Part shown: positions 59,409-60,341 of the stretch, piece by piece
Layout of the letters: the number at the start of each line of letters is the position of its first letter
Numbering within the stretch: the stretch's first letter is position 1
NCBI RefSeq assembly: GCF_044324875.1
Contig: NZ_CP172185.1
Reading direction: 5' to 3' (one strand)
From: Escherichia coli
GTDB taxonomy: Bacteria; Pseudomonadota; Gammaproteobacteria; Enterobacterales; Enterobacteriaceae
Length of the DNA stretch: 64,000 nt
Translations under genes and position numbers: made by a program
Notes under the pieces: generated by a model
Told to the model about the DNA's origin: nothing
The model's input: only the letters and a program-made list of their open reading frames with translations
Databases searched by the model: none

Positions 59409-60341
59409 TTACATGTACTCCCGAATTACCAGCACGCCATTAGCTCCGTGCCCGCCACGTCCTGACGTGTGTGAATAGCTATTATCGTATGCACCCCCGC
59501 CGCCGGAGCCAGAGCAAACTCCAGAATTACCGCTCAGTTGCCCAGCGCGGCCGCCGCCACCCCAATAGCTCGATGCCCCATTGCCTACTAATAGCGCCTG
59601 GCCCGCCTGTCCGTCTGAACCGTCTCCGCCTTGTTCAGTTTTATAACCGCCAGAGCCTGAACCACCGAGCCCGCCAGCGGTATTTGTAGCGCCGCCCCAT
59701 TGCCCACCCTGGCCGCCGAGCGCAGTTAATGTCATGAACGAACTATGACCGCCATTATTTCCAGACCCTGGCCCATTGGCACCACTACCACCGCTACCAA
59801 TTGTCACTGTATAGGTCCCTGGCCCGGCATCGTTGTCTGTCGCATAAATAGTGGCAAAAACAGTACCTCCGGCTCCTCCGCCAGCCCCTGAAAATGTCTG
59901 ATTTGCGTTCTCCGCGTTACATCCACCGCCACCGCCGCCCGCCGCAGTCAGAATAACGTCAATTCGTTTTACGTCAGCTGGCCACGTATATGAACCCGAC
60001 GATGAAAAAACGACAGTTTTGCTGTAACGCCCCGAGCCATCTCCCAAACCAAGGTTTTCGAGAGCCGTTTTCACCGTGCCATCCGATTTGATATCGCCAA
60101 ACGGATTCTTGCGGCTTAACAGCAGCTCACGAAGCGCTGTAAGCAACTGGTCATGCCGCCCCTTCTCCAGGCTGGCACCGGATGCCTCCACCACGCTGCA
60201 AAGCTCCTCCTGCAACATGTCAAAGTAGTCATCATCCAGATCGGTGGCAGGCGTGCCGGTCTGGGGGTTACCACGGGTAAAACCGTTCTTACCCGCGCCG
60301 AACTTATCCTTCTGCGCGGTTTTCGTGTCTATACGATGCAT
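59409..60341 (-). CDS. phage tail fibre protein with glycine-rich C-terminal region
   Basis: 310 aa; conserved tail-fibre N-terminus ([46 protein letters not shown]...) followed by extensive Gly-rich repeats. Confidence 0.85.
60040..60064. promoter_or_regulatory. candidate DNA-invertase crossover site (gix/hix/cix-like) inside the tail fibre gene
   Basis: TCTCCCAAACC-AA-GGTTTTCGAGAG: imperfect 12-bp inverted half-sites around a central AA, resembling the consensus TTATCNAAAACC-NN-GGTTTTNGATAA. Confidence 0.5.

Follow-up and report, generated by a model that had tools for sequence, protein, structure and literature searches.

A very probable relic of a Pin-type invertible tail-fibre segment in an SfV-like, gtr-carrying prophage of Escherichia coli

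The stretch of E. coli DNA analysed here, 64 kb long and referred to throughout as the window, runs from chromosomal genes into one end of a prophage. Our subject is the tail-fibre gene of that prophage, which is an intact open reading frame (ORF) of 310 aa (59409-60341, minus strand), together with a short sequence inside it and the genes that follow. An earlier, sequence-only reading of the window had placed a DNA-invertase crossover site within this gene and, on the opposite strand downstream, the remnant of an inverted tail-fibre assembly gene. Five features carry the argument, and are listed here from the start of the fibre gene onwards, with the basis for each in brackets.

60065-60341, minus strand: constant N-terminal part of the tail fibre, codons 1-92, of the SfV/e14 StfP type (nucleotide and protein identity; PGAP label stfP)
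60039-60064, minus strand: putative orphan Pin-type (pix) crossover site, 26 bp (identity to known sites; position at the constant/variable boundary)
59409-60038, minus strand: variable C-terminal arm, joined in frame to the constant part at the site, with a glycine-rich domain (Pfam PF21722) (part of the intact 310-aa ORF)
59004-59408, minus strand: tail-fibre assembly gene tfa (U-like), which serves the expressed arm (PHROG 188, E 5e-35)
58907-59032, plus strand: remnant of an opposite-strand assembly gene, tfa', the C-terminal 41 codons, of the TfaE/TfaS type (tblastn; RefSeq/PGAP pseudogene without an N-terminus)

The sequence TCTCCCAAACCAAGGTTTTCGAGAG is located at 60040-60064 on the plus strand. 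It is unique in the window when up to three mismatches are allowed, and shuffled sequence leads us to expect no matches. Read in the sense of the gene, the full 26-bp site is CTCTCGAAAACC-TT-GGTTTGGGAGAT. It codes for residues 93-101 of the fibre (A93-L-E-N-L-G-L-G-D101), and the central TT falls in codon 97, which confirms the earlier placement of the site about 97 codons into the gene. The site has the expected architecture, with two imperfectly symmetric 12-bp half-sites, a 2-bp core and an AAACC-NN-GGTTT centre. The 12-nt core AAACCNNGGTTT by itself is no rarer than chance (two matches at up to one mismatch, with 2.24 expected). Hence, the significance of the site comes from homology and not from the core motif alone.

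That homology is extensive. For the comparison, sites of e14, of the phages, and of the cix and gix systems were taken from database records. The window site is identical at 25 of 26 positions to the sites of e14 stfP (ycfK), SfV, SfII, SfIV, SKA5, 720R4, 689R6 and K-12 yfdL. Against the right-hand site of e14 (pixR, beside pinE) the count is 20/26, with 12 of 13 positions identical in the inner half; against P1 cix it is 19/26 and against Mu gix 17/26. The earlier reading would have been refuted by a lack of similarity to defined sites; the similarity is there, and supports its assignment to the Gin/Cin/Pin type. The hixL site (TTCTTGAAAACCAAGGTTTTTGATAA) would presumably agree with the window site at about 19 of 26 positions. 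The most direct comparison is with the repeat TTGGTTTGGGAGAAGG, a published endpoint of inversion in e14 and thus a site that recombines experimentally: 15 of 16 positions are identical. The window site differs from this proven e14 substrate at the outermost base only (T, not A, at position 26). PinE inverts the e14 P segment, which is bounded by the repeats TTGGTTTGGGAGAAGG and CCTTCTCCCAAACCAA, and PinQ can do so in trans (PMC12529663; PMC4272514). Judged by these identities, the 26-bp sequence appears to be a genuine Pin-type invertase crossover site, orphaned in a prophage tail-fibre gene.

The site also marks the point at which the fibre gene changes relatives. From 60040 to 60400 the window is 95.6-97.2% identical in nucleotide sequence to SfV, SfII, SfIV, SKA5, 720R4, 689R6 and e14 (96-99% for the protein), and the megablast matches to SfII, SfIV and SKA5 end at window position 60040. 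When the 45-base flanks were compared with those of eight relatives, 41-45 of 45 bases were identical on the constant side, 25 of 26 in the site itself, and 12-16 of 45 on the variable side. Since similarity drops exactly at the site across all eight, the site is the boundary between the constant and variable parts, as the sequence-only reading had supposed from the position of such sites in Mu and P1. At least four unrelated types of arm follow it in our set: the glycine-rich arm of the window, that of e14 StfP, the one shared by SfV, SfII, SfIV, SKA5, 720R4 and yfdL, and the StfE type found in 689R6.

The glycine-rich domain of the window arm (PF21722) was found in hundreds of contigs, and the arm is assigned to PHROG tail-fibre families. 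Searches for its more distant relatives gave less. A search for homologous proteins was saturated by 310-aa copies at least 98% identical and returned no distant contexts, and a distant DNA search of 58703-60039 against phages found similarity at the C-terminal end of tfa only, and nothing for the arm. A tblastn search with the arm (aa 101-310) against the phage collection gave no matches, probably because of the low-complexity filter, and says nothing about how the arm is distributed; the peptide scan of IMG/VR described below succeeded in its place. In the annotation, RefSeq splits the intact 310-aa ORF into an “stfP” pseudogene without a C-terminus and a “glycine-rich domain-containing protein”, and many source records call the whole ORF a “carbohydrate kinase”. 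Both the split and the kinase name look like annotation artefacts of a mosaic gene.

The tfa' remnant faces tfa tail to tail, and the two overlap by 29 bp (59004-59032). The earlier reading had given the remnant as 58883-59032. It is real, but it begins at 58907, 24 bases further in; 58883-58906 has no similarity to Tfa. In tblastn, 58907-59029 matches the last 41 residues of e14 TfaE (residues 160-200) with 68% identity and an E value of 2e-12. The number of identical residues is 28 of 41 for TfaE and likewise for SfIV_22 (gp22), 25 of 39 for K-12 TfaS, and 15 of 35 for the adjacent Tfa. A local duplication of the adjacent tfa, the ordinary explanation that the sequence-only reading had set against its own, is rejected on these counts, since the remnant is far closer to TfaE than to its neighbour. 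An overlap of the same 29 bp in length is present in e14 (5518-5546), SKA5 (6063-6091), SfIV (3598-3626), 720R4 (6081-6109) and K-12 (6078-6106).

Where did the expressed arm come from? The IMG/VR scan recovered 25 loci with an arm at least 96% identical to that of the window. In 24 of these the arm is in a fixed arrangement with tfa, and the tfa' remnant and gtr genes are present too wherever the locus reaches far enough. The remaining locus (L038) is a P2-like contig, with gpV/W/J/I, an H-like fibre and a tape measure gene. Here the arm and tfa sit, in the silent orientation, within an intact invertible segment of 1.9 kb. One edge of this segment is ATTTTCAAAAACG-TT-GGTTTGGGAGAT, 54 bp from an invertase that is 84% identical to PinE; the other is the inverted TTTCTACAAAACC-TT-GGTTTGGGAGAT, inside the H-like gene. 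Both of these inverted sites share the GGGAGAT inner half with the window site.

Window positions 60061-59016 align with 5981-7026 of this locus at 96.9% identity over 1046 bp without a gap, and the two copies of tfa are 95% identical. The homology begins inside the site and ends at about 59016, in the last codons of tfa, where the overlap with tfa' starts. Both sites of the P2-like locus have T at position 26, as the window site does, and every relative with another arm has A. Since this T is common to the sites of the P2-like segment, the inner half-site would have travelled with the arm, and the outer half is that of the SfV-type constant part. On this alignment, the expressed arm and its tfa appear to have come from a P2-type invertible segment. 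A further IMG/VR locus (L030, IMGVR_UViG_2565956624_000022, 5584-6633) has the same arm, tfa, tfa' remnant and gtr block on an unrelated N-terminal fibre part. Its outer half-site is CTCTTTCATACC, so that a further exchange has taken place at this position, here on the constant side.

On the far side of the tfa' remnant lie the following features.

55940-56302, plus strand: gtrA (annotation)
56299-57228, plus strand: gtrB (the same GtrB protein accession is found in the PSS-11 P22-like prophage)
57215-58702, plus strand: gtrC-like gene (PHROG GtrC-like, E 1e-73)
58748-58876, minus strand: remnant of a P22-like tailspike gene, the last ~42 codons (DNA and protein similarity)

Together, gtrABC form an O-antigen glucosylation cassette (55940-58702) that stands where the lost arm, the second site and the invertase would have been. 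The sequence at 58650-58831 is 98.9% identical to the P22-like prophage of strain PSS-11; it takes in the end of the same gtrC and the inverted repeat beyond it, as well as the 3ʹ end of the opposite-strand tailspike gene. The tailspike C-terminus (GTTAQRP...YYDTTLGLPIWYNGTASSWQRADGTNT, followed by the stop) is traceable at the protein level to about 58876. The next 30 bp (58877-58906) are the junction at which the tailspike remnant gives way to the middle of tfa'. The P22-like 3ʹ flank suggests that the gtr cassette arrived from a P22-like phage, and that it brought about 42 tailspike codons with it.

The inverted repeat is a perfect one of 13 bp (ATGGCGCATCGAT...ATTGATGCGCCAT region) at 58707-58743, between the gtrC and tailspike stops, and is also present in the P22-like prophage. 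It is not classed here as a terminator, since it has no T-run and was for that reason not called by the simple terminator scan. The junction itself is not confined to SfV-like prophages. E. coli ET650 (L043, NZ_CP100936.1, 1097233-1105524) has a P2-like prophage (gpV, W, J, I, tail fibre, tfa) with gtrA, gtrB and, in the position of gtrC, a third gene annotated as “hypothetical”. Its junction of tailspike and tfa' remnants is 96% identical to window 58806-59097, and the block as a whole lies between tfa and the tail-sheath genes. The presence of this junction in a P2-like prophage indicates that the block of gtr genes plus relic moves between phage morphotypes.

Can the segment still invert? 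Local inversion is impossible, because there is one site and no invertase. A second copy of the inner half-site (13 nt, at up to two mismatches) is absent from the window and from the loci L002 and L015, which between them take in the whole prophage of the reference genome CFSAN061770, and the window has no second match to the 25-mer at up to three mismatches. The inverted partner site that the sequence-only reading had proposed to search for is thus found neither in the window nor in the rest of that prophage. Its remark that no invertase is in view also stands: when the window was searched by tblastn with PinE, Gin, Cin and the invertase of SKA5, the best E value was 0.59. The annotation of the CFSAN061770 prophage contains no serine recombinase, and only a tyrosine integrase and an excisionase. 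The Fis-bound enhancer of Gin, Hin and Cin lies in the 5ʹ part of the invertase gene. Since there is no invertase gene here, there is no enhancer in cis.

The material to be switched is missing as well. No StfE-like alternative arm is found in the window (tblastn best E 0.41). One set of arm plus chaperone is complete (59004-60038), and of the other only the 41 codons of tfa' are left. The constant part and the site are single-copy in the closest genomes. Of 66 complete genomes that have the arm, at least 65 read contiguously across the site in a single arrangement, and this is also the arrangement of all 20 IMG/VR loci that combine the arm (at least 96% identical) with an SfV-type constant part. 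The components of a functional switch are lacking: there is no second inverted site, no adjacent invertase gene and no pair of arm-plus-chaperone sets, and the two orientations are not both observed. The locus is informative as a relic of evolution, but does not work as a switch of host range.

For the action of enzymes encoded elsewhere, K-12 provides a natural control: it combines an orphan site in yfdL with PinE and PinQ, both active, and e14 supplies two partner sites. A screen of the whole K-12 genome for inversions found that of e14 only (PMC4272514), and a BLAST survey with CPS-53 as the query found no inversions there (PMC12529663).

We consider it very probable that the locus was once a Pin-type invertible tail-fibre segment, carried by an SfV-like prophage that has a Mu-type tail, and that it has since decayed and become locked. 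On one side of the site would lie the conserved part that attaches to the baseplate (codons 1-92), and on the other an exchangeable arm for receptor binding. In intact relatives, inversion between two such sites would swap the arm and its chaperone for the alternative pair on the opposite strand. An illegitimate join of a P22-like tailspike gene, at its end, to tfa', the alternative chaperone gene, at its middle, would have brought in gtrABC. Three quarters of tfa', from the N-terminal side, would have been removed by it, together with the alternative arm, the second site and the invertase. The crossover site would then no longer switch, and would survive as the coding sequence for ALENLGLG in an intact fibre gene fixed in one orientation. 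The sequence-only reading had likewise proposed a former invertible segment with gtr genes in place of the lost arm and invertase, and the intact layout of SKA5 on the same tail module, described below, bears this out. The identity of the site, the mosaic boundaries, the remnants and the lack of both a partner site and an invertase are seen directly. We infer the order of these events, and also that the exchange at the site was made by an invertase, not by short-patch homologous recombination.

Some observations weigh against this account. The block of gtr genes, tailspike remnant and tfa' remnant is also in the P2-like prophage of ET650, so that the truncation may date from a different type of phage and have come in by import. 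The point at which SfV-type sequence gives way to L038-type sequence can be narrowed no further than an identical patch of about 20 bp that includes the central dinucleotide; because of this patch, an exchange mediated by an invertase and a short-patch homologous exchange are indistinguishable. When pinE, the SKA5 invertase gene and pinQ were added to the query, most of the genomes that carry the locus had at least one extra matching place. A trans-acting Pin-family enzyme, whether of the pinE, SKA5 or pinQ-like type, is thus probably present in most host genomes. Finally, rare rearrangements at the site are possible, since our evidence on orientation is from assemblies.

The first of these observations leads to an alternative that we think unlikely, namely that the relic was imported ready-made. 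The truncation would have taken place in another phage (e.g. a P2-like one), and the block from the inner half-site to gtr would later have been taken up by the SfV-like backbone through two recombination joints, of which one is at the site and one in the gtr/att/int region. The site would still be the relic of a Pin switch, but the backbone's own switch would not have decayed in place. The shared junction in ET650 is as expected from such an import, as are the P2-phage origin of the arm and tfa, the T at position 26 that travels with the arm, and the occurrence of the same block on an unrelated N-terminal part in L030. Nonetheless, the tfa' remnant belongs to the TfaE class, as in the switches of SKA5, e14, SfIV and K-12, and has the same 29-bp overlap, whereas tfa' is altogether lacking from the segment of L038. 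These facts are better explained by decay within a segment like those of e14 and SKA5.

The sequence-only reading had also allowed that the switch might be partly active. A Pin-family invertase encoded elsewhere would then flip the local segment, or recombine the site with remote pix sites and so cause large inversions or the capture of fibre modules. Pin enzymes do work in trans, since PinQ from Qin inverts the e14 segment (PMC12529663), most locus-bearing genomes have an extra place that matches pinE, the SKA5-type gene or pinQ, and the site departs from a proven substrate at its outermost base only. However, inversion needs two sites, and there is one in the window and in the whole prophage; the constant part and site are single-copy in the closest genomes; no enhancer is supplied in cis; the orphan yfdL site of K-12 has not been seen to invert in the presence of PinE and PinQ (PMC4272514; PMC12529663); and at least 65 of 66 genomes are in one arrangement. 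We therefore consider partial activity most improbable. The chance that the site has no recombination history, and that its palindromic core merely reflects the conserved peptide ALENLGLG, is close to nil. The core does occur at chance frequency, and the site does lie in coding sequence under constraint at the protein level. However, a coincidence of this kind is refuted by the match of 25 of 26 positions to a proven site, the break in homology exactly at the site in eight relatives, the second site and invertase of close relatives such as SKA5 and of the L038 segment, and a TfaE-type remnant in the expected position.

The relic of a Pin-type segment that we favour may have kept one use, although we rate this as improbable. 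The orphan site could still be a docking point, at which resident or incoming Pin-family invertases (PinE, PinQ/PinR, or that of a P2-like phage) recombine it with the sites of other prophages. If so, whole receptor-binding arms would move between unrelated phage types, or large chromosomal inversions would arise. The arm shared with L038, whose homology begins within the site, and the travelling T would then be the footprint of an exchange between elements catalysed by an invertase, as opposed to homologous recombination.

The surroundings of the locus are those of an integrated phage. E. coli chromosome (ybiU ... uvrB, bioDCFB, bioA, ybhB) fills the window up to about 55.9 kb, where the prophage end begins. 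In the reference genome CFSAN061770 (99.9% identical), an SfV-like, gtr-carrying prophage occupies the interval between ybhB and ybhC (3401640-3440511), the classical lambda attB region. This prophage is ~39 kb long and looks complete, with a full complement of genes for the head, the Mu-type tail, lysis and regulation; xis and a tyrosine int lie at its ybhC end and gtrA at its ybhB end. The gene directly upstream of the tail-fibre gene is the start of the conserved Mu-type tail module, which continues on the minus strand with gp47, gp46 and onward:

60345-60929, minus strand: baseplate wedge gene of the YmfQ / Mu gp48 type (PHROG 203, E 2.5e-84, and annotation)

The tail module is 96-97% identical to those of the Shigella serotype-converting phages SfII and SfIV and the E. 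coli phages SKA5, 689R6 and 720R4. SfV and SfI have it too, at ~90% over longer matches that take in the gtr genes. Far from the prophage, a molybdenum cofactor riboswitch is annotated upstream of moaA at the position of the reference genome that corresponds to window ~45913-46057 (minus strand); this is ordinary chromosomal context.

What is the significance of the locus? It is an example, resolved to the base, of a temperate phage that loses a host-range switch and gains a lysogenic-conversion cassette: on a backbone with a Mu-type tail, one half of a Pin-invertible segment would have been overwritten by a P22-type gtr module that still had the end of a tailspike gene attached. In phages of three morphotypes, the crossover site recurs as the boundary between modules. 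The locus also explains the odd tfaS and yfdL pseudogenes of K-12, and flags an annotation error on an intact 310-aa tail-fibre gene. The system is of a classical kind, the decayed layout is already implicit in the K-12 annotation (tfaS, yfdL), and no new mechanism is involved. We found no description of an orphan site in gtr-bearing SfV-like phages in the open-access literature; this is a weak negative, since the primary papers on SfV and e14 were not covered.

The closest intact system is that of SKA5 (OR670062), an SfV-like phage with a complete segment. Its tail module is ~96% identical to that of the window through the site, and the constant part, site, arm, tfa and tfa' follow in the same order. 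In our extract of the locus (L007) the first site is at 5278-5303, followed by the arm, tfa, a tfa' of 197 aa on the minus strand, an alternative arm on the minus strand, and the second site at 7109-7134. The inner half of this second site, TTCTCCCAAACCAACCTTTCAAATAT, is an exact inverted copy of that of the first. The invertase gene (7194-7757) begins 60 bp past the second site and its product is 56% identical to PinE; a gene for a DNA damage-inducible protein and the integrase come next. SKA5 differs in having no gtr genes.

The P segment of e14 (stfP-tfaP / tfaE-stfE, with PinE) is reportedly the subject of work by Plasterk & van de Putte in 1985 and Mehta et al. in 2004. Its constant part is ~97% identical in nucleotide sequence to that of the window, the site agrees at 25 of 26 positions and stands at the same codon (~97), and the upstream gene, ymfQ, is the same. 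The tail-to-tail geometry of the two tfa genes, their 29-bp overlap and the TfaE type of the opposite-strand gene are also shared. In contrast to the window, e14 does invert, and has kept tfaE in its full length along with the stfE arm, a second site (TTCTCCCAAACCAACGTTTATGAAAA) and pinE. The window has 41 codons of tfa', gtrABC in place of the rest, and a glycine-rich expressed arm, and no inversion is possible. A flipped e14-like state is seen in 689R6 (L005, vB_EcoM-689R6, ON470584.1, 6001-8282), where the constant part is fused to an StfE-type arm. The fibre ORF of that record runs into Ns, which are followed by mcrA and, on the opposite strand, an invertase 96% like PinE. The record is probably an assembly confounded by inversion heterogeneity.

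The CPS-53/KplE1 prophage of K-12 has decayed along similar lines. Like the window it has gtr genes (yfdG-yfdH-yfdI), a tfaS pseudogene, yfdK, and yfdL with an orphan site; it has no invertase, and the tfa overlap is again 29 bp. It differs in that yfdL is a truncated pseudogene, the prophage is defective at argW, the tfaS fragment is longer (303 bp) and the arm is another one. The window, by comparison, has an intact fibre gene in a prophage of ~39 kb that looks complete. The Shigella phages SfV, SfI, SfII and SfIV share the tail module, the constant part, the site and a gtr cassette downstream of tfa, but have a variable arm of the EAAKR...IAMGY type. In SfV a tfa' remnant is neither annotated nor detected. 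SfIV is intermediate, with a nearly full tfa' (174 aa) cut by ISEhe3 and followed by gtrIV. The SfI genome paper reports that homology to e14 ends at SfI position 17,234, and makes no mention of inversion (PMC3636060). That position is the position of the crossover site.

More distantly, the G segment of Mu (Gin/gix) and the C segment of P1 (Cin/cix) have a 26-bp site with an AAACC-NN-GGTTT core, placed inside the S gene at the constant/variable junction, and U and Uʹ chaperone genes tail to tail. Their sites are less similar to that of the window (17/26 and 19/26), the central dinucleotide of Mu is TC where the window has TT, the constant parts of both are much longer (~169 codons in Mu), and both systems are intact and active. 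Nearer to the window, the relatives form a graded series on the same backbone, in which the switch is whole in SKA5 and e14, intermediate states are found in SfIV and K-12 CPS-53, and no remnant is detected in SfV. This is the series expected of a relic.

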